From positions 1 through 33,395 of IMG/VR virus record IMGVR_UViG_3300020045_014702: a stretch of DNA of 33,395 nt; one strand, 5' to 3'. The position numbers were made by a program, and so were the translations under genes. Origin of the DNA: a virus. Its lineage: Duplodnaviria; Caudoviricetes. Under the pieces are notes generated by a model. It was not told the DNA's origin and did not search any database. It was given only the letters and a program-made list of their open reading frames with translations. This document shows positions 3,689 to 32,771 of the stretch, in pieces; positions within the stretch are counted from its first letter, which is position 1; each line of letters opens with the position of its first letter.

Positions 3689-4702
3689 TTATTCCTTATA
3701 ATCCTTCCTATATAACCATTTATATCCAATAAAGTTTCGATCGTTATTCTGAATGTAGTAACGAATCGCTCCTTGTCGTCCAGTTTGCCCTAAAACCCAA
3801 TCTGATGCCTCCTTAGCCATTTTGAACTCTATACAGATTTTGTTGTTCGAATCTACAGCTACGATCTCCTTCCACCAGGTATTGACATATCCTTCCTTAG
3901 ACTGAGTTTCTCTCTTCGATTGCATTCTTTTATCGCATACTTCTTTTGAACCGAGTAGAGCGGTTCTTTTCGCTCTGTATTCCGGATTATCCCAATTTGC
4001 TTTCTGCTTGATTCTGTTTTTTTCGTTTCTCTCTGGCGTCTTCGCTACTTTTGCGAGATATTCAGGATCTTGCCAGTTGGCTTTAGATTTGATTGAGACT
4101 TTCGCTCTCTTCTCTGGTCGACCATTAATTTCTTTCCATTTTTGAGTGTAAGCGTCAGGATCTGCTTCTCTCTCTTGCTCTCTTTGTTTTTTAGATGCTG
4201 TTTTCATTTTTTCATGATGAGCTTCACTCCATACTTGCTCTATTCTTTTTTTATGCCACTCGGGTGTACGAATAGTGTTCTGTTTTTCGATATACCACTC
4301 TTGTTGCCATAGCCAGATAGCGTTATCTTTCATTTTTTCGAGAGCTTCAGGAGTATGTGGTCTTCCTTCTGATCTCCCAGCTACTGGACAAACATTATAA
4401 CCTAATTTAAGAAATCGATCGTCTTTGCCTTTCGTTAAGCAATATTCTTGCGAATAGAGAAGTGTATCGAGATAGTATTGTTCTCTTTCTAGTAATATGC
4501 TTAGTTCGCATTCTTCGATAATAGAAAACTCGAAAGCTTCTTCGCCGTATTTATTAAAAGAGTGTTGTAGATGAGTTGAGTGGTGAGAGTTTGATCGCAA
4601 ATACCAAAAATGTTGTGTTTTTCGTCTCTCAAAGTTGTCGCTTGATCCAATATAGATCTTATTTGTTGTGTTATTTTTTATTTGATAGATTCCACTATTC
4701 AT
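3689..4702 (-). CDS. Free-standing GIY-YIG homing endonuclease
   Basis: SGIYQIKN...KIYIGSS...RRKTQH, EREQYY and GYNV motifs; WxDPEY helical repeats; NUMOD1-like C-terminus. Confidence 0.92.
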   Translation of the reverse strand: MNSGIYQIKNNTTNKIYIGSSDNFERRKTQHFWYLRSNSHHSTHLQHSFNKYGEEAFEFSIIEECELSILLEREQYYLDTLLYSQEYCLTKGKDDRFLKLGYNVCPVAGRSEGRPHTPEALEKMKDNAIWLWQQEWYIEKQNTIRTPEWHKKRIEQVWSEAHHEKMKTASKKQREQEREADPDAYTQKWKEINGRPEKRAKVSIKSKANWQDPEYLAKVAKTPERNEKNRIKQKANWDNPEYRAKRTALLGSKEVCDKRMQSKRETQSKEGYVNTWWKEIVAVDSNNKICIEFKMAKEASDWVLGQTGRQGAIRYYIQNNDRNFIGYKWLYRKDYKE

Positions 4703-22261: not shown

Positions 22262-24249
22262 TCAGTTATTTCATTCCACTTGCCTGCTTTCAGAATTTCA
22301 TAGATCTTTTCAGCTTTGATGTAACTTTTGGTTTCTGTTTTAGTTGGTATTTTCTTCCACCTATTCCACATTGGAATCTCAAGAGTATTGTTGTATGAAT
22401 TCAACGTATTCCCAAGAATTCTGATACACTGAAACTGATCACTACTATAGCCTTTAAACCATTGATCTCTGTTTTGAGGAACTTCTAATCCAAATAATCC
22501 GTCATTCGCTACAAAGTGATCCTCTACACTTTTTCTCCACTGTTCCTCGTTGAATTCTTTTGCTTTGCTTTGAATTGCTTTCAGATCTATTTTTGTTTTT
22601 TCAAGATCAAGAATCTGTTCGTACAACTCCAATGTCTGTACTTCTATTTTTGGTTGAGTAAGAAACATCTGGTTGAGTTCAGCGAATACTTGCGACATTC
22701 TCATCATTTCAACGATTCTTCCTTCTTCGCCTGGTTGAGTGTTTGGTCCTTCAAACGCTGCATATAATCGTCTCTCAAGTGAGAATTTAACGATTACTCT
22801 GAATCTCTGCCAATCTCTTTCAGTTGATTCTTTTTTCTGAATATCGAATAATGTGATTTGAGACTCCATATAATCTCGATGAACTTTGTCTTCAACTGCG
22901 TGACAACATTCACTCAACTTACTCTTCACAGAATTACTCCATAGCTCGTATATTTTTTCAAATAACGCAAGTTTGTTTTCGTCGATCTTCTCGTTCAATT
23001 TGGTTGCTTTTTCAAGACCATTCTGTACACTATTGAGGTATTCTTCAGGAGTCAACTCGATTACTTCACCAATGAAATCAGATAGATCTTCTTCGATCGT
23101 ACCGTTTTCTCTTTTCCCAACTACTCTGTTATTCAATCGAGGATTGTTTGGATCTATCTCAGGATTAAGTGACCAATGTTTTGGACTGCTTAATTGACCG
23201 AAAGCTTCAGTCCAACCACAACAGTCAAGTACTATGAGGTGAGATCTATCTGATTTTAGTCTTGTTCCTCTACCAACCATTTGTAGATAGAGTGTGAGCG
23301 ATTTAGTTGGACGAGCTCCAACGATAACTCCTGTGTCAGGTAGATCGACTCCTTCTGTCAACATTTCGACATTTATGAGGATCTGTGTTTCTTTTTCTTC
23401 GTAAGATTTAGTTATTCTTTCAATCTCTTCTGTGGAGAGCGATGAATCAATCTGTTCTACACCTTTTACTTTCTGCTCTACAAAGACTTTCTTTAAATTG
23501 CGAGCATGTTCCTTATCGACAGCAAAAACGATTGCTTGACGATTGTCTCCATACTGCTTGTACATTTCTACTACATAGTTGAGGTATTCAGGTTGTCTCA
23601 TGTAGTGTGAGAGTTGTTGTTGTTGGTAGTCGTTCGCTACCTCATCTACTTCTTTTTCAATTTCACCAATCGGAGCTACATAAGTTTTATATTTAGCTAA
23701 GAAACCTTTCTCGATAAGTGAAGCAGTAGTTTCAGTGCTACACACCATACATTCGAAATGTTCATCTAAACGCTTTTTATCCTTGCGGTAGGGAGTGGCG
23801 TCACATCCTAATTTCTTGATATTCAGGTTGTTAATTTCGATTGCTTTGAGAACTTTGTCGTAAGAGTTGGTTCTTGAGTTTCTGGCTTCATCGATCACTA
23901 CCATATCCCAATCTCTTTCAAGAAGCTTGCCTAAACGTGCATCTTTCACTGCTGTTCGGATCGAAACGATTATAACGTTACTATCCATATTCTCTGCAGT
24001 ACTTGCTATGAGTAATCCAGCTTTGATTCCTACATTTGAAAGATGTTGTTTGAGTTGAGTGAGTAATCTGCGTTTGTGAGCGAAGACTATGATCTTTTGA
24101 TCTTTGTGATCGCTGATGATCTTAGATAGGACCACAGACTTTCCTCCACCAGTTGGAAGCTGGTAGAGGATTGAGTTGTATTCAGTCCAAGCTGATTCGA
24201 TTCTTTCTATATCAGACTTTTGATAATCTCTGAGTTTTATTTCTTTCAT
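22255..24249 (-). CDS. Superfamily 2 helicase (DExx, Res-subunit/YejH-like) with long C-terminal extension
   Basis: LRDYQ, QLPTGGGKS, VIDEAR, DATPYR, LTEGVDLP and QMVGRGTR motifs. Confidence 0.92.
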   Translation of the reverse strand: MKEIKLRDYQKSDIERIESAWTEYNSILYQLPTGGGKSVVLSKIISDHKDQKIIVFAHKRRLLTQLKQHLSNVGIKAGLLIASTAENMDSNVIIVSIRTAVKDARLGKLLERDWDMVVIDEARNSRTNSYDKVLKAIEINNLNIKKLGCDATPYRKDKKRLDEHFECMVCSTETTASLIEKGFLAKYKTYVAPIGEIEKEVDEVANDYQQQQLSHYMRQPEYLNYVVEMYKQYGDNRQAIVFAVDKEHARNLKKVFVEQKVKGVEQIDSSLSTEEIERITKSYEEKETQILINVEMLTEGVDLPDTGVIVGARPTKSLTLYLQMVGRGTRLKSDRSHLIVLDCCGWTEAFGQLSSPKHWSLNPEIDPNNPRLNNRVVGKRENGTIEEDLSDFIGEVIELTPEEYLNSVQNGLEKATKLNEKIDENKLALFEKIYELWSNSVKSKLSECCHAVEDKVHRDYMESQITLFDIQKKESTERDWQRFRVIVKFSLERRLYAAFEGPNTQPGEEGRIVEMMRMSQVFAELNQMFLTQPKIEVQTLELYEQILDLEKTKIDLKAIQSKAKEFNEEQWRKSVEDHFVANDGLFGLEVPQNRDQWFKGYSSDQFQCIRILGNTLNSYNNTLEIPMWNRWKKIPTKTETKSYIKAEKIYEILKAGKWNEITEK

Positions 24250-24497
24250 TTGTTAAGGATTTGTTTCCAAACTTCTTTATCTTTCTTGATTTCTTTAGTT
24301 GCTAATTTTTCCAAATCTCCTTGAAACAATTCGATCGTTCTTGTGGTGTAGTTAGATATTAAAGATCCTCTCGAATAGTAACCACTCATTAAAATACCAC
24401 CGTTATTAGTTTGTACACTATAGTCGTATGAATCGTAATTAAGGATCAATTCTACTACTGTACTCATTACTCTGATTGAAATGTTGATCTTTTTCAT
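24246..24497 (-). CDS. Hypothetical protein
   Basis: ATG inside repeat copy 2; ATGA overlap with the helicase. Confidence 0.65.
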   Translation of the reverse strand: MKKINISIRVMSTVVELILNYDSYDYSVQTNNGGILMSGYYSRGSLISNYTTRTIELFQGDLEKLATKEIKKDKEVWKQILNK

Positions 24498-24571
24498 AAT
24501 CTTCTGTTTTTAATTACGCTGCGAAGATACGACCTATTTTCTTACGAAACAACAAAAGTATGTTTTATTTT
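24492..24571 (-). repeat. 80-bp direct repeat (class 1 promoter + leader + ATGAAA), copy 2
   Basis: 73/80 identical to 22182-22261. Confidence 0.9.
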
Positions 24572-24577
24572 CGAATT

Positions 24578-25123
24578 TTATACTGGAATCGTATTAATTA
24601 GATCTTTTACAGCTAAGATAGTTTGTAGCAAAGCTATAACTGTGTCTGGAAGTATGAAAAAGATGTTCACTGCTGCTTGAAGGAGTCTTTGAAAGGTTTG
24701 AAGCAAAGTATTGCAAAGCGATGAGAATGTATTCTTTTTTGTTTTGTTCTCCAGTAATACATAAGCTGGGTTTGGTGCTACTGGAGGAACTCCGATTGCT
24801 GGTGGCATTAAGGCTGTAGCGATCGTTGTTGCGACATTCTCAGTTAATTGCACTGTTCCTTCAGTAACAGTTTGAATTGAGGATTTGATTGTAGCAATTT
24901 GCTCGTTGATATAATCTGAACCTGTAGATTTCAAGGAGTCTATGATTTGAGACTTTTGTTCAGCTCTTTGCTCTTTTGTCGGTAAGGCGTCAAGCTTAGC
25001 TTTGTATGTTGGATTATTCTCCACCATTCCATCTATAACTGAATTGAAATCTAATCCAGGAACTTCTATTGATCCTCCTAATTGAGAGATCAAGTCTTTT
25101 TGTTGTTGCAATGATACTGGCAT
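24578..25123 (-). CDS. Hypothetical helical protein
   Basis: 181 aa with a PPAIGVPPVAPNP hinge between long helices. Confidence 0.65.
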   Translation of the reverse strand: MPVSLQQQKDLISQLGGSIEVPGLDFNSVIDGMVENNPTYKAKLDALPTKEQRAEQKSQIIDSLKSTGSDYINEQIATIKSSIQTVTEGTVQLTENVATTIATALMPPAIGVPPVAPNPAYVLLENKTKKNTFSSLCNTLLQTFQRLLQAAVNIFFILPDTVIALLQTILAVKDLINTIPV

Positions 25124-25138
25124 ATTGGTTGAATTTAG

Positions 25139-25182
25139 AAAAACCTCACTCTTCCTAACAATAAGGTGTGAGTGAGGTTTTT
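25139..25182. terminator. Inverted repeat, possible bidirectional terminator
   Basis: AAAAACCTCACTC-N18-GAGTGAGGTTTTT. Confidence 0.6.
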
Positions 25183-25228
25183 GAGTTTAATTTATTCTCT
25201 TTGATATCAATTTAGTATGATTTCTGAC

Positions 25229-25552
25229 TCATACGAGGACTTGTGGTTTTATACCAAATGACCAAGGTTCCTGTTTGATTTTCGGCAGATTGGTTACAGA
25301 CTTCACTCTTTCACTGAGCTGAGGAACGATATCAACTTCTCTCCCTCGATCTTCTCGAGTTAACAGCTCTCCTCTAATGATAGTCTGGTTTTGAATGAAA
25401 GTGTCGTAGTCGTTACTAGAATTACCGCCTTGATTTATCCAAGAGCTCTTATCTACAACTGATGGAGACTTTTGGTTCGACTTGCTCTCGATACTGGTCG
25501 AACAGTTTGAGAGTGCTAAGCAGACGGTTAATAATAGGGTTGACTTTTTCAT
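25229..25552 (-). CDS. Putative lipoprotein
   Basis: MKKSTLLLTVCLALSNC signal peptide II-like N-terminus. Confidence 0.6.
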   Translation of the reverse strand: MKKSTLLLTVCLALSNCSTSIESKSNQKSPSVVDKSSWINQGGNSSNDYDTFIQNQTIIRGELLTREDRGREVDIVPQLSERVKSVTNLPKIKQEPWSFGIKPQVLV

Positions 25553-25764
25553 TCGATTTTTGTTTTAAAGTTACGAGATACTTTACGATTTATGAGTTGA
25601 TCTTCAAGTAAACTCTCAATCGATTTGATTAAGCCAAGAAGAATTCTTCCTCGATTCCATATCTCGTTATATTTTTAGTAGCAGTTCAATAGATTCTCTC
25701 ATCCTTGTCTCCTTCTGTTCAGTGAAGGTTAGATTGGCTCACTTTCGAGTTTCCATCTCTGCTA

Positions 25765-25947
25765 CTATTTCTTTAATCTTAAATGTCTTAGGCGATCTTT
25801 CTTAATCTCTGAGTTTGTTTTTATTTTGAAAGCTATAAAACTGATTAAATTTACCAATCCTGATAAAATGAAATAAATAATAAAGAGAGTTGCTGAGATG
25901 ATTCCAGCTAATACTAGATCGTTTAATCCTTGTTGAATACTTGTCAT
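25765..25947 (-). CDS. Small membrane protein
   Basis: Long hydrophobic stretch followed by a basic tail. Confidence 0.5.
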   Translation of the reverse strand: MTSIQQGLNDLVLAGIISATLFIIYFILSGLVNLISFIAFKIKTNSEIKKDRLRHLRLKK

Positions 25948-25977
25948 AGTGACTCGATTTTTAAATGTTAATGTGTT

Positions 25978-26095
25978 TTAGCGAGAAGTGCTTTCAGCTT
26001 TCACTTTTTGCTATTTGGGGCGGTTCTTATATTACCATGAACTATAATCTTTCGATTATGTTTTACTTACCTCCACCATGCAGTAAGCTCGCTAA
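25978..26095 (-). ncRNA. Unassigned structured RNA A (double pseudoknot)
   Basis: Closing stem TTAGCGAG/CTCGCTAA; hairpin CTTACT/GGTAAG whose loop GGTGG can pair with CCGCC; ATAATC-GAAA-GATTAT; AATAGCAA then AAGTG-AAAGCTGAAAG-CACTT. Confidence 0.65.
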
Positions 26096-26103
26096 TTTTA
26101 TTG

Positions 26104-26465
26104 TGGAGGTGGAGGGAGTCGAACCCTCGTCCAAACACGGAATCAGTATTGAAATTAATTACAGCTTCACTCATCCGTTCTGGAGATACTATCAAGTTTG
26201 AGAAACTTGTAAACTAGGCTGAAGGATACTTCCTCCAACTCCACCACCTCATTTTATCTAAACAAGGAAACTCTTCAAAAACTTCTGACTACTCTTATGC
26301 AGCAGCTTTCACTGATACACGTTGTGCAAAATTGATTACTAGTACTTCATCAATCATGCGTTGGATTTTGTTGTCAATTAATTTTGTGATCTTTTGAAAC
26401 GAGACCTTATCAAACTCGTGCTGTTCCAATACCGCTTCGACATGCTGTCAAAACCAAACACCCCC
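26104..26465 (-). ncRNA. ssrA: tmRNA
   Basis: 5' GGGGGTGTTTGGTTTTGACAG; 3' GAGGG-TTCGACT-CCCTC-CACCTCC-A with G3:U70 pair. Tag frame 26375-26295 encodes DNKIQRMIDEVLVINFAQRVSVKAAA*. CCA not encoded. Confidence 0.93.
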
Positions 26466-26489
26466 ATATTTCAATGAACTCTTTTAAAA

Positions 26490-26583
26490 TAAAAACAACG
26501 GTGAGGTTCTGAGCTTTTATCCTCCTTGCTATTCTGGGTAACCTTTTGAATTTTCCCACACACCCTTTAGGAAATTGTTTTTA
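26490..26583 (-). ncRNA. Unassigned structured RNA B (same topology as RNA A)
   Basis: Closing stem TAAAAACAA/TTGTTTTTA; hairpin TTTCCTA/TGGGAAA whose loop GGGTG can pair with TACCC; AATAGCAA then GAGG-ATAAAAGCTCAGAA-CCTC. Confidence 0.65.
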
Positions 26584-26584
26584 G

Positions 26585-26690
26585 AAAGGAGAAACGGATT
26601 CGAACCGTTGACCTCTGGTCTTACCCAGCGCTCTATCCGTTCGACAATTGCTTTAGTCATCGCACTGTCGGGTATCTGAGCTATCTCCCC
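26585..26690 (-). ncRNA. tRNA-like RNA with hairpin insertion in the D-loop and shrunken anticodon arm
   Basis: Acceptor GGGGAGA/TCTCCTT; D-stem GCTC/GAGC enclosing 44 nt; anticodon arm CTGG-GTAAGA-CCAG; intact T-arm AACGG-TTCGAAT-CCGTT. Confidence 0.75.
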
Positions 26691-26699
26691 TTATCTCTC

Positions 26700-26778
26700 G
26701 AGAGGAGTCTAATCCTCTCTTCACTTACAAATAAATTGATCGCCTCTCTAGTAAACCAATTTTAGACAATTCGTAAGC
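26700..26778 (-). ncRNA. Unassigned structured RNA C (bulge-loop kissing interaction)
   Basis: GCTTACGAAT/ATTTGTAAGT and AATTGGT/ATCAATT stems; bulged GTCTAA is complementary to the loop of GAGAGGA-TTAGAC-TCCTCTC. Confidence 0.6.
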
Positions 26779-26784
26779 AGTACG

Positions 26785-26858
26785 CTGGAATTGAGAGACT
26801 CGAACTCCCGACTTTCGACTTAACAGGCCGACGCTCTAACCAACTGAGCTAAATTCCA
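26785..26858 (-). tRNA. tRNA-Asn(GTT)
   Basis: TGGAATT-TA-GCTC-AGTTGGTTA-GAGC-G-TCGGC-CTGTTAA-GTCGA-AAGTC-GGGAG-TTCGAGT-CTCTC-AATTCCA-G; discriminator G; CCA not encoded. Confidence 0.95.
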
Positions 26859-26863
26859 AGGTT

Positions 26864-26917
26864 GTGACGATTCCCCTCTTCTACAGCATATTGGGATTGA
26901 TTTTGCCGTCTCGTCAC
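26864..26917 (-). ncRNA. Unassigned structured RNA D (single pseudoknot in a closing stem)
   Basis: GTGACGA/TCGTCAC closing stem; ACGGCA/TGCTGT crossing TCCC/GGGA. Confidence 0.6.
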
Positions 26918-26996
26918 TTTGCAGAGTTACATTTATCTACTACCAACTTAAAGAACTCCAAGATTATTCTGCCTAAGCTACATCTAATTGATTTGG

Positions 26997-27078
26997 AAGT
27001 GTTGTATTTTAAATATCAAACAAGTTATTCAGATTTCAGCTGAAACTGATGTTGTACTGATCTTGCGATCCTACACTT
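26997..27078 (-). ncRNA. Possible structured RNA at the 5' end of the RNA operon
   Basis: AAGTGT/ACACTT closing stem, GATC-GCAA-GATC GNRA hairpin, TCAG-TTTCAGCTGAAA-T-CTGA. Confidence 0.35.
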
Positions 27079-27100
27079 TTTATCGTCTCGTTTGACTTTG

Positions 27101-27143
27101 GAAAGATACTACCGTTTGATTCGATTTAGCAACAGTCGTCTGT
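27101..27143 (-). promoter_or_regulatory. Repeated phage promoter, class 2, heading the RNA operon
   Basis: ACAGACGACTGTTGCT identical to 17569-17584; TTG-N21-TATCTTTC. Confidence 0.6.
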
Positions 27144-27187
27144 TATTATTTTTCATTTATTTTCAACTACTCTTGAGAATCAGTTTG

Positions 27188-27820
27188 TTAGATATCGATA
27201 TAATCGTATTCTTTTTGGAAGTATTCGATTAGCTCCTTTATTTTGGGATCGATTACACCATCTACTATGAGATCAAACATCCTCTCTCCATACTCCTCAA
27301 TCAGTAGTAGGATCTTATTGTACCGTTTTGAATCGTGCTTTTGAGTGTAGAGTAGATCGCTTTCAAATGAATTCAGTATAATCATCTTCTCGATATCACC
27401 ACTCTCCCACGAATTATGGCAGGTTCGACAGAATAGATTGATGTTGTCTTCGTCTAACTCAAGATCCTTTCTCTGCTTTACTGAGAGGATGTGAGATTTA
27501 TCGAAACTGCTTCCTCCTACTCCACATCCCCAACAGTAGTAAACTCCATTATCAATGGCTTTTTGTTCAATTGATGCTTTGAGTTCATGTAGCTTCTTTT
27601 TTGTTTCAGCTTCGTTTGAGGTTTGTTGTTTGAGAGGTTTGAATTTTGCTCTGATCGTTCGTGGCACTTTAGCCTCTACTCTTTCAGAAGCTCTCTCTTT
27701 ATAGACTTGAGCTCTGCTCGCTCCATTATGAAGTCTTTCAAAGTTGCAATCTGAACACAACCACTTCGATCTATTTTCGATTGGTTTTGGTTTATTGCAT
27801 TTGCTGCAAGGCTCACTCAT
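27188..27820 (-). CDS. HNH nuclease with N-terminal Zn finger
   Basis: Start MSEPCSKC (TAATG overlap at 27820); CWGC...DKSHILSV...NINLFCRTCHNSW HNH core. Confidence 0.8.
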   Translation of the reverse strand: MSEPCSKCNKPKPIENRSKWLCSDCNFERLHNGASRAQVYKERASERVEAKVPRTIRAKFKPLKQQTSNEAETKKKLHELKASIEQKAIDNGVYYCWGCGVGGSSFDKSHILSVKQRKDLELDEDNINLFCRTCHNSWESGDIEKMIILNSFESDLLYTQKHDSKRYNKILLLIEEYGERMFDLIVDGVIDPKIKELIEYFQKEYDYIDI

Positions 27821-28074
27821 TACCAAGTAAATGTTGTAGGATTGGTCCAATCGATTTGAAAGAGTTGTTTGAACTCTTCATTGGCTTGCTTTGCTGTTCC
27901 TTTATAATAGATACGGAAATTCTTCCACTCTCTTTTCATTTTTGAAGCTATTTTGTATCCAATAAGATATTTACCTGGAATACCGTTAGATTTCGGTTTT
28001 ATTCCAATTAACTCCATTCTTCTTACGATTGGATTTATTTTGATTCGTCTCTTGCAACTTGTTCCTAATTTCAT
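27820..28074 (-). CDS. Hypothetical basic protein
   Basis: Operonic ORF. Confidence 0.6.
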   Translation of the reverse strand: MKLGTSCKRRIKINPIVRRMELIGIKPKSNGIPGKYLIGYKIASKMKREWKNFRIYYKGTAKQANEEFKQLFQIDWTNPTTFTW

Positions 28075-28076
28075 CT

Positions 28077-28334
28077 TTACTTCTTTTTAAACATTTCTTC
28101 GCTCCAACGATTCTTCCCGCTGTCTATCGATAATTCGTATGTATGTGTGAATTCGTCGTATTCTACGACTTTCGTTACTTTGCCACAGTATTCTCTCATT
28201 TCAGGAGAGAAACCCATTCCTACGCAAACGTAACCATTAGAACAAGCGTTAGATAGGTACCATTGTAAGGATAGGATTTGAACTTCACTTCCAATAGGAA
28301 GATTAATCCTCTGAGGAATCACTTTTGTACACAT
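28077..28334 (-). CDS. Hypothetical protein
   Basis: Operonic ORF with EMREYCGKVTKV...WSEEMF pattern. Confidence 0.6.
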   Translation of the reverse strand: MCTKVIPQRINLPIGSEVQILSLQWYLSNACSNGYVCVGMGFSPEMREYCGKVTKVVEYDEFTHTYELSIDSGKNRWSEEMFKKK

Positions 28335-28716
28335 AGTTGTTTCTTTTGTTAACTTTATCTGTAACAGATCTCCACATCTTATCTCTGAGTGAATCTGAAT
28401 TGTGATGATCGATAGTCATTTTATTCATTCTTTCAAGGCGATCTGTCTCCATATTATCAAACTCTTTAGTGAATTTGAGTTTGTATTGAGATGAGATTTG
28501 AAAGTACTCATTAATGCTCTTATAAGCAAACTCAACTCCTCTTATTATAACTCCAATAGAAACTAATATCGATCCCAAAAGGATTAGAACTCCCCAATAT
28601 GAGAAGATTATCCAAATCTTTCCCTTTGGAGTGTAGTCGCTTAAATCTGTCTCATTAATGTAGTATCCTGTTACTAGAGAATTGAGAATAAAGTAAATGT
28701 AAATTAAGTGTATCAT
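28303..28716 (-). CDS. Hypothetical membrane protein
   Basis: Two N-terminal hydrophobic segments. Confidence 0.6.
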   Translation of the reverse strand: MIHLIYIYFILNSLVTGYYINETDLSDYTPKGKIWIIFSYWGVLILLGSILVSIGVIIRGVEFAYKSINEYFQISSQYKLKFTKEFDNMETDRLERMNKMTIDHHNSDSLRDKMWRSVTDKVNKRNNYVYKSDSSED

Positions 28717-28814
28717 TTATTTTGTTTTAGTTGGTTGTGAGTATTGAGGAAACCTAGTCCAAGTCACATCTTCGTAGTAATGAGTACTTATTCCTGTGAT
28801 TGTTGAGGTGAATT

Positions 28815-29894
28815 TCATCTTACTGGTGTTAAATGTTCTGGGTTATCGAATTCTACTGTCTTACTTCCTACTCTTTCGAGTTCCTCTTTTGCCTTTCTTC
28901 TGAGAGCTAATCTCATTTTTTCTTGAATACCTGACAGAGCCATATTTTGAGGTAGAGGTTCAATGAATTCTTTCGGTTGTTTGTTTTCCATTCGATCGAT
29001 ATTCAATCTCTCTTCGACTACTTCGTGCTGTATATCCTCAATCACTTTTGTTTGTTCTGATCTAAGAATTACTCCACCAATCTCATCCTCTGTTCGTCTA
29101 CTCTTCTCCATTAACTGATTCAATTCAATCTTTTCTTCAAGAGTTAGTTTAGAGAGATCGATGTTCGGTTTTGTATTCTTTATTATCGTTGTCTCCTCGT
29201 TGTTGATGATCAATCTGAATGCTTTACGATGCATTCCTAGTAATTCTTCCTTTTGATGGAGAACTCCAAGACAATTCATGTAAGCTATGTTTTTAGCTTC
29301 TTCTCTCTTCCAATCTTCTTCGATATACCAAGGAGGAATGAAGTGTAGTAGTACTTCAATCTCTCTATCGTAACGTTGGGTGTGGATTGAGATCACTTCT
29401 GATCTCTGGATATCGTAGTCTTGTTTTATGAGTTTGTTTGCTGTGAGAGTTACTTCATCAGCAAATCTTTCGTGATATGGTTTTTTAGTGTTAGGATTGA
29501 TTTCTTCACAGATGAGTTCTCGACAAGCGTCTACACTCATTCCTGATTTGATTCGGTCGATAGTTTGATAGACCAGTCGCTCCATATTGCCATCTTTCCC
29601 TCCAACTCCTTTCTTCTCAACTTCCTCCTTTGTTGGTCTATTTTTTGGATCAACTACTTTTGGATCTTTGAGAGCCTCTCTACCGCTTCGTTTTGGTTTT
29701 TTAGCTTTACCTCTCTCACCTTTCAACATCCATTCGAATTGTCCAGAGGACAATGTTTCAGCTTGAATCTTTTCACTTTTACTGTACACTACGCAACCAG
29801 CTTGAACCTTTCCTCGATGAAGTATCCCGTTACCAAACTTCACTACTATGATCGCAGCCTCTTTCGGTAGTCGATTTTTAAATTTAGTCCACAT
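28815..29894 (-). CDS. Terminase-adjacent protein, candidate small terminase subunit
   Basis: Likely start MWTKF at 29894. Helical core and IDLSKLTLEEK motif often seen near TerS C-termini; directly after TerL. Confidence 0.4.
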   Translation of the reverse strand: MWTKFKNRLPKEAAIIVVKFGNGILHRGKVQAGCVVYSKSEKIQAETLSSGQFEWMLKGERGKAKKPKRSGREALKDPKVVDPKNRPTKEEVEKKGVGGKDGNMERLVYQTIDRIKSGMSVDACRELICEEINPNTKKPYHERFADEVTLTANKLIKQDYDIQRSEVISIHTQRYDREIEVLLHFIPPWYIEEDWKREEAKNIAYMNCLGVLHQKEELLGMHRKAFRLIINNEETTIIKNTKPNIDLSKLTLEEKIELNQLMEKSRRTEDEIGGVILRSEQTKVIEDIQHEVVEERLNIDRMENKQPKEFIEPLPQNMALSGIQEKMRLALRRKAKEELERVGSKTVEFDNPEHLTPVR

Positions 29895-29907: not shown

Positions 29908-30963
29908 TTAAACAAACATAAAGTCAGGACTGTCGTCAATTAATAATTCTCGTACAGCCATAACAAGTGTATCGACTGCTTCGTCGTGATTACCACTTGG
30001 GAAAGATCCTAACAAATCCAAGAAATGCTCTACGTACGGACCTTGAATTAGTCGAACTCGCCTTGATTCTAAGGTTGGAGCGATTGAGTGAGCTCTTGTT
30101 ACTTTATCTTTTTCAGGATTCTCAGCTTCAATCACATTGAGTGAAGTGACTGACCTAAGTTGTTGTACAATACTCTTCCCACTTGCTTTAGGTTCAATGA
30201 ATATTTTACTTAGATGAGTGTACTGATAGCCGTTAGTGTGAATTATGATGTTTTTACACAGTTCTGGAAATTCTAACCATTTTTCTGTGAAATCCAACAC
30301 ATAGAGGAAATTGTCTTGTACAAAACACGTTAAAATACCTGTTGGATCATTTTCTGTTTTAGCTGTGTACGCTGAATCGATAAAGAAGTGTATTGGACTC
30401 TGCTCCACCTTTCTCAAAATCATTTCCGGTAATAAGATATCGAACCATGTCCGTTTAATAATTCCTCCCTCATCAGGAGATGGTCGCTGTTCGTATTGTC
30501 CAGTATAACCTCTCAACCCAAGTGTCTTTCTAAACCCACTCAAGATCATTGCTGAGAGTCGAGTAGGATCCAATAGTCCATTTACGTATTTTGTTTTTAA
30601 TTCAATAGGTTTGACTATATCGCTCGTCTCTGCTGGTAGACATATGTGTCTGTACTGTTCCGGATTCTGCTCTAAGAGAAACCCAGTCAGATCATTCTCA
30701 TGTAGTCGTTGCATGATGATGATTCTTATTCCAAGGTTGATGGGAGTGAGTCGATTGTACAGTGCTCGAGTGTAGTATTGAATTACGGCTGTACGACTAA
30801 GCTCACTCTCTGATGTCTTGGGGTTTTGAGGATCGTCGACTATACAATTATGAACTAAAACTCCATCGATGTAGTAATTGTTGTTATCTTTGACCTCTAA
30901 ATTGTATACTTCAAGATCTTTCACTTCTTCAAAGGAGATAGATCGTATTTGTTCACTTTTCAT
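29908..30963 (-). CDS. terL: Terminase large subunit, C-terminal part, preceded by split intein C-fragment
   Basis: After the 39-aa IntC: CIVDDPQ (Walker B), IIMQRLHENDLTG, GQYEQRP, IDSAY, IEPKASG and HDEAVD nuclease motifs. Confidence 0.93.
   Translation of the reverse strand: MKSEQIRSISFEEVKDLEVYNLEVKDNNNYYIDGVLVHNCIVDDPQNPKTSESELSRTAVIQYYTRALYNRLTPINLGIRIIIMQRLHENDLTGFLLEQNPEQYRHICLPAETSDIVKPIELKTKYVNGLLDPTRLSAMILSGFRKTLGLRGYTGQYEQRPSPDEGGIIKRTWFDILLPEMILRKVEQSPIHFFIDSAYTAKTENDPTGILTCFVQDNFLYVLDFTEKWLEFPELCKNIIIHTNGYQYTHLSKIFIEPKASGKSIVQQLRSVTSLNVIEAENPEKDKVTRAHSIAPTLESRRVRLIQGPYVEHFLDLLGSFPSGNHDEAVDTLVMAVRELLIDDSPDFMFV
30847..30963 (-). mobile_element. Split intein C-fragment (39 aa)
   Basis: MKSEQIRSISFEEVKDLEVYNLEVKDNNNYYIDGVLVHN followed by Cys+1: blocks F (VYNLEV) and G (VHN/C). 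Confidence 0.93.
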
Positions 30964-31897
30964 TATGGAATTTCTTTATGTGTCCAGGTAATCGACATAT
31001 TTGAAAGCTTTTATTGCAATAGGGACAGATAGTTCTCGGTCGATTCAAACTTCGTTCACTTTGTAATTGCTTTAATCTTTCTCCCTCACTACCTTCGTAA
31101 CGATCTTTCATTGTTTTGGAATTCTTCTCAGCTATGTTAGCTTTATACTGAGGATCACTCCATCTTTCTCGATTTCTCTCTGAAGCTTTAATGTGCTCTT
31201 CTTCTTTGCTCCACTTCACTTCATTCATCTTCTTTCCTGAGTCTATTGGACTGGTTTTAATTCCCTTTTTCAATAAAGATCTCTCTTTCTTTTTATCCTC
31301 AGTCCAATAGTTCTGAAATCGTTCACTAGTTTGCTTTCGTCGCTCTTCAGTCCAACTCTCGCTTCTTCTTGTCGAGATAGATTTTCTTTGCTCAATTGTT
31401 AGATTAGACCAGAATAGTTTTCTCTTTCTTGAAGAGGTTTCTTTTTGCTCAGTAGTTCGATTCGCTCTACCTATTGCACTATTTCGTAAACGTTTCTCAG
31501 CGATATGTTCTTTTCGGTCTGGATCGTTTAGAGCTTCTTGAATAGCTAATCTTCTCTTATCATAGTCTCTCGCCCAAGATTCTTTATTCTGTACACTTGA
31601 TCTTTGCGATCGAGCTTCTTTATCTTGATACAATTTCCACCACTCACCGTCCTCTCCTCCTTCTGAGAGATTGTAACCAATTCCTGGAATGTTGGCTTGT
31701 AACTTTTTAATCCACTCTCTTTCTAAATCTTTACTTTCTTGTAAAATTTCTTTTAGAAAGTTCTTTTTACCGTTTTTAGCTACACTTTGCTTTATTAATT
31801 TACCACTACCCCAATAGCGATCGAAATCTTGTTTTGTTCGACCAACGTAGAATAAACCGTTTAATTTATTGGTTATTTTGTAGATTTTATACTCCAT
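30953..31897 (-). CDS. Free-standing GIY-YIG (Seg-like) homing endonuclease between the terL halves
   Basis: YKIYKITNKLNGLFYVGRT, YWGSG, NFLKEIL, LEREWI and GYNL motifs; helical W-repeats; C-terminal CPYC...H...H Zn finger. Confidence 0.9.
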   Translation of the reverse strand: MEYKIYKITNKLNGLFYVGRTKQDFDRYWGSGKLIKQSVAKNGKKNFLKEILQESKDLEREWIKKLQANIPGIGYNLSEGGEDGEWWKLYQDKEARSQRSSVQNKESWARDYDKRRLAIQEALNDPDRKEHIAEKRLRNSAIGRANRTTEQKETSSRKRKLFWSNLTIEQRKSISTRRSESWTEERRKQTSERFQNYWTEDKKKERSLLKKGIKTSPIDSGKKMNEVKWSKEEEHIKASERNRERWSDPQYKANIAEKNSKTMKDRYEGSEGERLKQLQSERSLNRPRTICPYCNKSFQICRLPGHIKKFHNEK

Positions 31898-31934
31898 GTA
31901 ACTATTTGTTGATGAGTTATAAAAGTATGACTTT

Positions 31935-32228
31935 TTAATCTTTCAGTAAAACGTTATCAGTTATTAGAAGGTCTTTAGCTTGAAGCCAACCTCGGTTAGT
32001 AGTGTAGATTGGGTGCTCTTCTGTGCAGATTATTTTTCTTGTCTCTGTCTCGATAACATACAGTCGACCAGTGTAGTTTGATTTCAAGTAGTGTGTGATT
32101 GGTTTGAGTTCTACATTTTTCTCCTCTTCGTTGTAAGAATCAATCAGTACATCTAATTGTCTTTCTACAACATCAGCTATATCGAGCTCTCCTTCGCTTG
32201 TAGAAATCATCTGCCCTTTGGGAAAGCA
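31935..32228 (-). mobile_element. Split intein N-fragment (97 aa)
   Basis: CFPKGQMIST (block A), ICTEEHPIYT (block B TxxH), RGWLQAKDL, then stop. Confidence 0.93.
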
Positions 32229-32771
32229 AACTGTACCCTTGTGACCAGTAATGTTCGATCCGGTCGTCTTAGATAGTCTAAAACCACCCTTGTCGTTCAT
32301 AAAGTAACTCTTACTGTCAGCGTCGGACCGTATTTGATACAAGTGTCCAAACAACTCTTGATACTCGTCGCTCTTGATTATATCCTTTGAGTATTGGGCG
32401 TTTAGAAGCGATAAGTCTTCGTCGAACGAGATAGAGATCATCGGTAGCGACGGTTGCTTTATCCACATCCATGCTAGGAGCGACACTGACGTGATGAGCG
32501 ACTTGGAAGTACGTGGGGGGATGTTAACAATTAGGTCGGTAGTCCTTTCCTCTTTTCTAATGATTCTCTCAATCTCAACTTGGTATAAATCACATAGATA
32601 GTGAATATGAAAGGTGTCCTCAAACTTCTCGTTAGGGAACAAAATTAAGAAGCTCCAAACGAAAAATTCGTAGTACGATTCGGTGAAGATTTGTCGTTTT
32701 AACTCGAGCTCGAGTTCTCTGTCGACTAGAGAATAATTTTTATCTGACATTGTTTTCTGGAATTCTACCAA
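31935..32771 (-). CDS. terL: Terminase large subunit, N-terminal ATPase part, fused to split intein N-fragment
   Basis: LIVNIPPRTSKS Walker A and GSNITGHKG. Start is TTG 32771 or ATG 32750. Confidence 0.92.
   Translation of the reverse strand: MVEFQKTMSDKNYSLVDRELELELKRQIFTESYYEFFVWSFLILFPNEKFEDTFHIHYLCDLYQVEIERIIRKEERTTDLIVNIPPRTSKSLITSVSLLAWMWIKQPSLPMISISFDEDLSLLNAQYSKDIIKSDEYQELFGHLYQIRSDADSKSYFMNDKGGFRLSKTTGSNITGHKGTVCFPKGQMISTSEGELDIADVVERQLDVLIDSYNEEEKNVELKPITHYLKSNYTGRLYVIETETRKIICTEEHPIYTTNRGWLQAKDLLITDNVLLKD

Follow-up and report, generated by a model that had tools for sequence, protein, structure and literature searches.

Clusters of transfer RNA (tRNA) genes in phages have long been known for stable RNAs without an assigned function, such as RNA C and RNA D of phage T4. 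Here we report an array of small structured RNAs around a transfer-messenger RNA (tmRNA) gene in the virus record IMGVR_UViG_3300020045_014702 (Caudoviricetes), which was analysed as one stretch of 33,395 nucleotides (nt), called the window below. The array lies on the minus strand, where a promoter-like motif is followed by a hairpin element, RNA E2, RNA D, tRNA-Asn, RNA C, a tRNA-like RNA, RNA B, a boxA-like site, the tmRNA and RNA A.

An earlier note, made by reading the sequence alone, had described this order of elements with short spacers and no credible open reading frame (ORF), and both descriptions hold. Read off the sequence, the spacers measure 2 nt (E2 to D), 5 nt (D to tRNA-Asn), 5 nt (tRNA-Asn to C) and 2 nt (C to its accompanying hairpin), then 9 nt (that hairpin to the tRNA-like RNA), 2 nt (tRNA-like RNA to B), 24 nt (B to tmRNA) and 5 nt (tmRNA to A), a range of 2-24 nt. 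No sense ORF longer than 49 amino acids (aa) was found within 27095-25978 (minus strand), and two antisense ORFs of 78 and 59 aa over the array gave no Pfam match. Between promoter and D the note had placed a single hairpin RNA; the hairpin element exists, but it is a weak hairpin pair and shares the interval with E2. The comparison with Rfam that it had proposed returned, at gathering score over the whole 33-kb window, the tmRNA and tRNA-Asn only, in agreement with ARAGORN, and leaves the small RNAs without a family of their own: A, B, C, D and E2 each gave no Rfam family lying on that RNA alone at E ≤ 10 (positions 24000-29000 scanned). At that threshold a permuted-tmRNA match (21.3 bits, E 0.22) reaches from the 3' end of the tmRNA over A. 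The array is real, and it is better supported than it was from reading the sequence alone.

The E2 motif and the turnover of whole units

By comparison of its copies, E2 is the best-supported new motif of the array. Its predicted fold consists of a first stem (P1), a pseudoknot, a 2-bp tetraloop hairpin, a 4-bp stem and a 3' hairpin; the stretches GAUGUAGC, GCAGAA and GUUCUUUAA are invariant, and so are many unpaired bases. Four distinct sequences were found: in the window, in two relatives whose helicase is 89% identical to that of the window (L001 and L002, which share one), in phage G003 (locus L281) and in phage G053 (locus L352). The G003 copy was spotted by eye, and a pattern made from three copies then retrieved the independent fourth, in G053. 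This pattern gave six viral matches, four real and two in ORFs, and eight matches in GTDB, all of which (8/8) lie inside ORFs. In the alignment of the four sequences, 80 of 82 cells are paired and 10 of 21 pairs are changed on both sides, four of them in the pseudoknot; such covariation was reached by 0 of 500 shuffles, and slid registers pair at 32-47%, a contrast that is inflated because the structure was drawn from the same four sequences, two of them close. The fourth copy, found through unpaired motifs, still obeys the structure. All four distinct copies (4/4) sit in phage tRNA/tmRNA islands. Taken together, the alignment indicates that E2 is under structural selection. E2 was also considered as a diverged copy of the GTPase centre of 23S ribosomal RNA (rRNA) or as a twister fold, and both were rejected, as the pairings differ and no score exceeded the null.

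The second line of evidence comes from relatives of the window phage. Among cultured phages, Chryseobacterium phage MA9V-3, a myovirus of 103 kb (PMC13120357), is the closest to it (head protein 71% identical), and the host of the window phage is therefore taken to be a Bacteroidota bacterium. In L001 and L002 the promoter, E2, the tmRNA and RNA F (which lies beyond A) are kept, and D, tRNA-Asn, C, the tRNA-like RNA, B and A are missing; their island bears two other tRNA-type genes, and in L001 a tRNA-like gene stands in place of the two-hairpin element. Further variants were found in contigs matched at 80% likeness (X1-X3), which are thus relatives and not the window genome itself. In X1 and X3 contigs, which come from two studies, positions 26481-26691 are replaced by the same 8 letters, which removes both B and the tRNA-like RNA 5' of it. 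Of the X3 contigs, one is in addition without 26862-26917 (D) and another without 25973-26101 (A), and in an X2 contig the promoter region is joined to the tmRNA with 29 letters between; these D, A and X2 joints rest on sides of 30-33 letters, the limit of reliability, and the X2 joints at 26580-26784 (side of 23) and 26993-27088 (side of 25) are too short to trust. In an X3 contig, 120 other letters replace the two-hairpin element and part of E2 is unaligned. The deletions end within a few bases of closing stems. As judged from these alignments, related phages differ by the gain or loss of entire units.

X17 was rejected as a relative, its match coming from other tRNAs only, and sequencing runs that share few words with the window were not usable as habitat evidence. 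In L001 (4775-5947), a 2.7-kb tandem-repeat insert with a repeat-rich protein lies between an HNH gene and the RNA island; it is missing from the window.

Transcript limits and individual units

The promoter-like motif, which presumably corresponds to the Bacteroidota -33/-7 consensus, is 90% identical in L001 and would place the transcription start near 27095 (minus strand). A second copy lies in the window at about 17585-17535, with 16 nt exactly common to both, and more copies head operons in intergenic positions in G002 and G003. The block 27147-27085 was considered as a conserved RNA and rejected because it recurs at intergenic operon heads, as a promoter motif does. A metagenome scan with this block gave 17 matches, one relative (L152, same as L001) and 16 by chance. 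The 11-mer directly 5' of the tmRNA is taken here to be a boxA; its pattern also occurs, in sense orientation, at 18 of 20 rRNA-operon loci of Bacteroidota, and together with a tmRNA 5' end it was found in 64 viral stretches, in a search that used that very pattern. The transcript probably runs beyond A through a 60-aa ORF, RNA F and a 107-aa ORF to a terminator-like hairpin (Table 1). The 107-aa ORF (25229-25552, minus strand) has a lipoprotein-like N terminus and no Pfam or PHROG match, and is probably co-transcribed with the array.

Table 1. Features of the RNA array and its flanks, in the order of the minus strand.
Feature	Position	Strand	Remarks
Promoter-like motif	27101..27147	-	TTG, 20-21 nt, TAnnTTTC
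Two small hairpins	27020..27076	-	Weakest element; z about -1
RNA E2	26920..27006	-	87 nt; pseudoknotted motif without Rfam match
RNA D	26864..26917	-	7-bp closing stem around predicted H-type pseudoknot (helix list)
tRNA-Asn(GUU)	26785..26858	-	69.6 bits (Rfam), ARAGORN; CCA not encoded
RNA C	26722..26779	-	9-11-bp closing stem around predicted H-type pseudoknot
Hairpin accompanying C	26700..26719	-	7 bp; travels with C
tRNA-like RNA	26586..26690	-	Derived from host-type tRNA-Ala(UGC); anticodon absent
RNA B	26490..26583	-	10-bp A/U closing stem
boxA-like antitermination site	26469..26479	-	Directly 5' of tmRNA
tmRNA, one-piece	26101..26465	-	85.7 bits against gathering 47 (RF00023); CCA not encoded
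RNA A	25978..26095	-	8-bp closing stem, four hairpins, possible GGUGG/CCGCC loop pairing
RNA F	25676..25767	-	9-bp closing stem, three inner stems; beyond the range of the earlier note
Terminator-like hairpin	25139..25182	-	Likely transcript end; fold -20.2 kcal/mol; not in consensus scan list

Terminal stems had been ascribed to most of the small RNAs. They are long for C, the tRNA-like RNA, A and D; those of the first hairpin element and E2 are at chance level. In 5000 random windows of the same length, an equal closing stem had a chance of 0.0002 for C, 0.0016 for the tRNA-like RNA, 0.012 for A, 0.034 for D, 0.19 for B, 0.73 for the first hairpin element and 0.74 for E2, values to be read with the element ends picked after looking and the B window extended beyond its stem. 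Fold-energy z-scores are modest (C -2.7, A -1.8, tRNA-like RNA -1.7, D -1.4, B +0.6), and tiles with z < -2 number 2 of 17 in the cluster against 33 of 417 window-wide.

The tmRNA, a full member of its family by score, has a predicted tag of 26 residues ending in AAA (ARAGORN) and is 82% identical in L001. The tRNA-like RNA combines a T arm near-identical to that of tRNA-Ala with a 44-nt D-loop bearing a hairpin insert, an arm of 4 bp and 6 nt in place of the anticodon arm, and an acceptor 3' strand that is 2 nt short. It falls outside the tRNA family (RF00005; 19.1 bits against gathering 29), lacks the 7-nt anticodon loop, and was seen in the window genome alone. It thus derives from a host-type tRNA-Ala but is without its anticodon, and it cannot decode. 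Below threshold, a wcaG RNA match lies inside the tmRNA internal domain (26178-26275, minus strand; 29.8 bits against gathering 42).

RNAs C and D share one topology in unrelated sequence. On both window strands, a descriptor of it found only the C and D sites. Neither strand of the other 28 islands nor any of three shuffled sets gave a site, and the GTPase-centre loci described below gave a single one. Their predicted pseudoknots come from a helix search, and the X1 and X3 variants give no two-sided covariation for them; the four stem substitutions in C all (4/4) keep pairing, none two-sided. RNA F is 82% identical in L001, with 42 of 44 cells paired, four one-sided changes and no two-sided one, and has a tRNA directly 5' of it in L001, not in the window. 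RNA B is collinear with 23S rRNA about nt 455-520, its best site for 17 of 19 references, with a mean score of 35.4 against 28.9 ± 1.8, equalled in 2 of 600 shuffles and in 3 of 340 control tiles; given about nine units tested, this likeness is a marginal lead. A link between RNA A and family tmRNAs through UGGUGGAG was rejected, since the word is present seven times on the array strand; its 7-mer occurs in 9 of 52 tmRNA stretches and 12 of 183 flank tiles.

Related RNAs in other phages

Among the family records, 6 of 41 hold a tmRNA above cut-off, and the tmRNA is permuted in G003, G042 and MA9V-3. Within a single family of phages, some tmRNAs are one-piece (window, L001, G030, G040 and G053) and others two-piece, and long tags are frequent. 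In G030, G009, G003 and G053 the tmRNA sits in an island of about 1-2 kb that is free of ORFs, and none of these islands has sequence likeness to A-D. Three of them, L273:1141-3100 (G009), L271:1216-2325 (G030) and L281:130-1000 (G003), hold several tRNA shapes with altered anticodon arms and other stem-closed RNAs.

Anticodon arms with a 5-nt loop, a 6-nt loop or a tetraloop recur in tRNA shapes among phages, and the same loop was found in separate phages: a 5-nt loop in G009 and G010, and the 6-nt loop GACUAA in G040 and G042. In G003 the anticodon arm ends in a GAAA tetraloop. Loci with odd anticodon loops include L263:1420, L264:1229, L262, L363 and L281:635. A D-loop-insert pattern modelled on the tRNA-like RNA gave 22 viral matches, namely tRNA-shaped RNAs at L018 and L007/L023, the rest being chance. 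That at L018:1494-1612 (reverse reading), in an unrelated phage, has a 52-nt D-loop and directly follows a sigma70-like promoter. At L007:1361-1620 (reverse reading) and L023, a tandem pair of tRNA-shaped RNAs with expanded arms lies directly 5' of an ORF that we take to resemble Ro60/TROVE. Y RNA genes adjoin the Ro60/TROVE gene, and these RNAs are probable phage Y-like RNAs. In the window, Rfam gave no Y RNA match (YrlA, RF02553), and no Ro60/TROVE was found among the flanking ORFs scanned.

Copies of rRNA were sought with 161 windowed rRNA profiles in 29 islands, which gave five overlapping matches at 12 bits or more, at two sites of G053, against 0.2 per shuffled set. The G053 island (L352:1-1590), which is also one of the E2 islands, holds a GTPase-centre copy (641-675; score 46 against a shuffle maximum of 26; 13 bits, above 100 of 100 shuffles) and a sarcin-ricin-loop look-alike (875-890; 8.3 bits, above 100 of 100 shuffles) among tRNAs and tRNA-like RNAs. 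Its tmRNA contains 23S-like stretches at about nt 171-200 (16.9 bits) and 230. The ORFs that adjoin the island locus (L406:9340-13521) presumably encode phosphatase-, kinase-, nicotinamidase- and vWA-like proteins. Both copied sites are toxin targets: 23S helix 44 is modified by Tre23 (PMC8661411), and the sarcin-ricin loop is likewise attacked (PMC2896532).

A GTPase-centre pattern gave 41 viral matches, of which 32 are intergenic and stand alone (25 distinct), eight are chance matches in or beside ORFs and one is an rRNA operon. The stand-alone copies represent helix 43 without the surrounding rRNA, and many lie among tRNAs. They appear to form a class of phage RNAs that is widespread and not yet catalogued. 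Several resume helix 44 after an insert, of 40-130 nt in several, and in the 20 GTPase-centre loci scanned Rfam gave only tRNA-type matches. The window holds no GTPase-centre copy and so has no member of this class. The 32 copies of helix 43, the L11-binding GTPase centre, lie at L408-L445 (for example L412, L414, L424, L427, L431, L434 and L435), frequently within tRNA clusters of large phages. Near such RNAs, L411, L418, L424 and L435 hold tRNA scaffolds with long anticodon-arm inserts, which may be introns or scaffolded aptamers. A weak GTPase-centre likeness in G009 was rejected for its ORF-like context and a failed profile.

Proposed function and alternatives

Host polymerase would start at the recurring promoter and produce one transcript, and boxA would recruit Nus factors for antitermination through the untranslated RNA. 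RNase P cuts the 5' ends of tRNA-type RNAs and RNase Z the 3' ends that lack CCA. Cuts by both at the tRNA, tRNA-like and tmRNA shapes would leave D, C, B and A as separate RNAs with tails of 2-24 nt, and the closing stems would protect the released RNAs, which would then soak up host proteins that recognise translation RNAs, for example defence nucleases and toxins. Punctuation at tRNA shapes, proposed in the same terms by the earlier note, is plausible and fits the relatives because B is lost jointly with the tRNA shape 5' of it.

Our best reading, held tentatively and somewhat short of an even chance, is that host RNase P and RNase Z release exchangeable RNA decoys for proteins that target translation RNAs. 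The decoy role is favoured because of the fast turnover, the non-decoding tRNA neighbours and the sister island in G053 that copies two toxin-hit 23S sites. It is the most weakly inferred step, drawn from that sister island and the recurring non-decoding tRNAs and not from A-D. More doubtful is the wider proposal that exchangeable cassettes which mimic the translation machinery, cut from one antiterminated transcript, form an RNA-only counter-defence arsenal of which the window shows one cassette; its members would include anticodon-less tRNAs, insert-bearing tRNA scaffolds, GTPase-centre and sarcin-ricin-loop copies, and new folds like E2. If the units are decoys, phage counter-defence has a modular RNA-only layer against tRNA- and rRNA-attacking defences and toxins, which protein-centred screens would miss.

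Several results weigh against the decoy reading, as does the small alignment behind E2. An E2 model (R2) gave no new member in 50 family records, 96 loci and 24 loci; its sole match (E 0.015, family records) is coding-like sequence and was not counted as E2. The discrete units foreseen in the earlier note are borne out by the gain and loss of whole units and by the covariation of E2. A, B, C and D show no two-sided compensatory change; in X1, D keeps two inner pairs and has one closing pair broken, with the partner at the edge of the aligned piece. A-D have no distant homolog by BLAST over all loci collected, and a model of RNA A (R3) found none in 99 sources. The likeness of B to 23S rRNA is unseen by the profile method, and a host-like pattern for that 23S region gave one match, a true rRNA operon, and no stand-alone copy. 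Against the window, the rRNA profiles gave nothing at 5 bits or more, and no window module beat its own shuffles in this test. The E2-D and hairpin-E2 borders and F are without a tRNA-shaped neighbour in the window. All runs compared were contigs, and the one metatranscriptome matched through tRNA look-alikes only. In MA9V-3, which grows lytically, no such RNA cluster was found besides a lone permuted tmRNA; the array is therefore accessory.

Two alternatives are the main rivals. The units may be real but serve to tune host translation for the phage rather than to block defence, by binding ribosomes, ribosomal proteins, RelA or tRNA enzymes. Co-transcription with tmRNA and tRNA would suit such a role, and protein docking fits equally well the GTPase-centre copies of other phages, which keep the L11-binding helix nearly intact with helix 44 inserts of 0-130 nt. 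This appears unlikely, as units turn over fast between phages whose proteins are 89-94% identical, which suits an arms race more than a core role, and the window is without a GTPase-centre copy. Also unlikely, to a similar degree, is that only the tmRNA, tRNA-Asn and perhaps E2 matter, A-D being structured spacers, tRNA relics or passengers that recombine at tRNA ends. The modest fold z-scores, the restriction of the tRNA-like RNA to the window genome, and A-D without distant homologs or two-sided covariation speak for passengers; the long closing stems with deletions ending within a few bases of them, the rare topology common to C and D, whose stem substitutions keep pairs in six of seven cases, and the identical odd anticodon loops in separate phages speak for functional units.

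The remaining explanations are less likely. Theta ribozymes process transcripts beside phage tRNAs, and some of E2, C and D might likewise be small self-cleaving ribozymes that process the transcript, since compact pseudoknots abut tRNA ends and E2 is rich in invariant unpaired bases. This is improbable: Rfam gave no ribozyme family at E ≤ 10, a search run with no dedicated theta descriptor, and the helix order of E2, C and D misfits what we take to be the consensus cores of HDV-like, twister, pistol and hammerhead ribozymes. Mimicry of type III toxin-antitoxin antitoxins, raised in the earlier note beside a decoy role, would make C, D or E2 pseudo-antitoxins in the manner of pseudo-ToxI of phage phiTE, a phage RNA that neutralises a defence toxin (PMC3475682). 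A helix search predicts for C and D an H-type pseudoknot, the fold of ToxI and CptI (PMC5086642), but the proposal is not supported and is hardly probable: the array is no tandem array, with just five short two-copy families, matches no Rfam antitoxin and adjoins no toxin gene, and C and D, at 54-58 nt, are sealed in a closing stem, whereas ToxI monomers of 34-36 nt have single-stranded tails (PMC5086642). Very improbable is a role of the units as templates of a reverse transcriptase, as with UG27 of Bacteroidota phages, whose arrays of variable non-coding RNAs likewise gain and lose single units (10.64898/2026.09.22.753630); the reverse transcriptase domain PF00078 was found in none of five records (MA9V-3 complete, four incomplete; divergent enzymes may escape PF00078), and the units are heterogeneous, set around a tmRNA and tRNA, and not repeats of one fold.

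Among known systems, the tRNA-cluster precursor of T4 with RNA C and RNA D is, on our comparison, the nearest kind. In T4, tRNAs share this precursor, about 1.75 kb long, with RNAs that are not tRNAs (PMC2330249), and RNA C and D (species I and II) are expressed, with function unknown (PMC9697503). Like it, the array has non-tRNA RNAs in one unit with tRNA genes behind a single upstream promoter motif. Unlike it, the non-tRNA RNAs outnumber the tRNAs (at least 6 against 1) and flank a tmRNA, and there are pseudoknots, an anticodon-less tRNA and unit-by-unit turnover. The sole sequence comparison with T4 RNA C and D was a BLAST search of a phage collection, in which the best 40 of 91 matches concern the tRNA-Asn region and one MA9V-3 gene. 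Phage tRNAs also act against defence: tRNA-Tyr of T5 offsets retron 78 and tRNAs of T6 offset Septu (10.1101/2023.03.15.532788; PMC13096335). Those tRNAs work as replacements for cut tRNAs, whereas the tRNA-like RNA of the array cannot decode and most units are not tRNA-shaped. Fremin et al. (2023; PMC10690425) mined uncharacterised and tRNA-like structured RNAs from IMG/VR as a catalogue of single motifs. In the literature searched, tmRNA-centred cassettes, E2 and stand-alone phage GTPase-centre RNAs are undescribed; the supplementary models of PMC10690425 and PMC8040213 may contain E2 or the GTPase-centre class. The array joins a new covarying motif to that class, and the presence or absence of each unit in otherwise near-identical phages forms a natural series; single units measure 55-120 nt.

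The window is a partial phage contig that encodes a major head protein, portal, protease, endolysin, helicase and terminase. The coding sequence of the terminase large subunit is split in two around a homing endonuclease gene (29908-32771, minus strand), which suggests an intron, and Rfam gave no intron RNA at this site. A second homing endonuclease gene lies 3' of the head gene (3689-4702).

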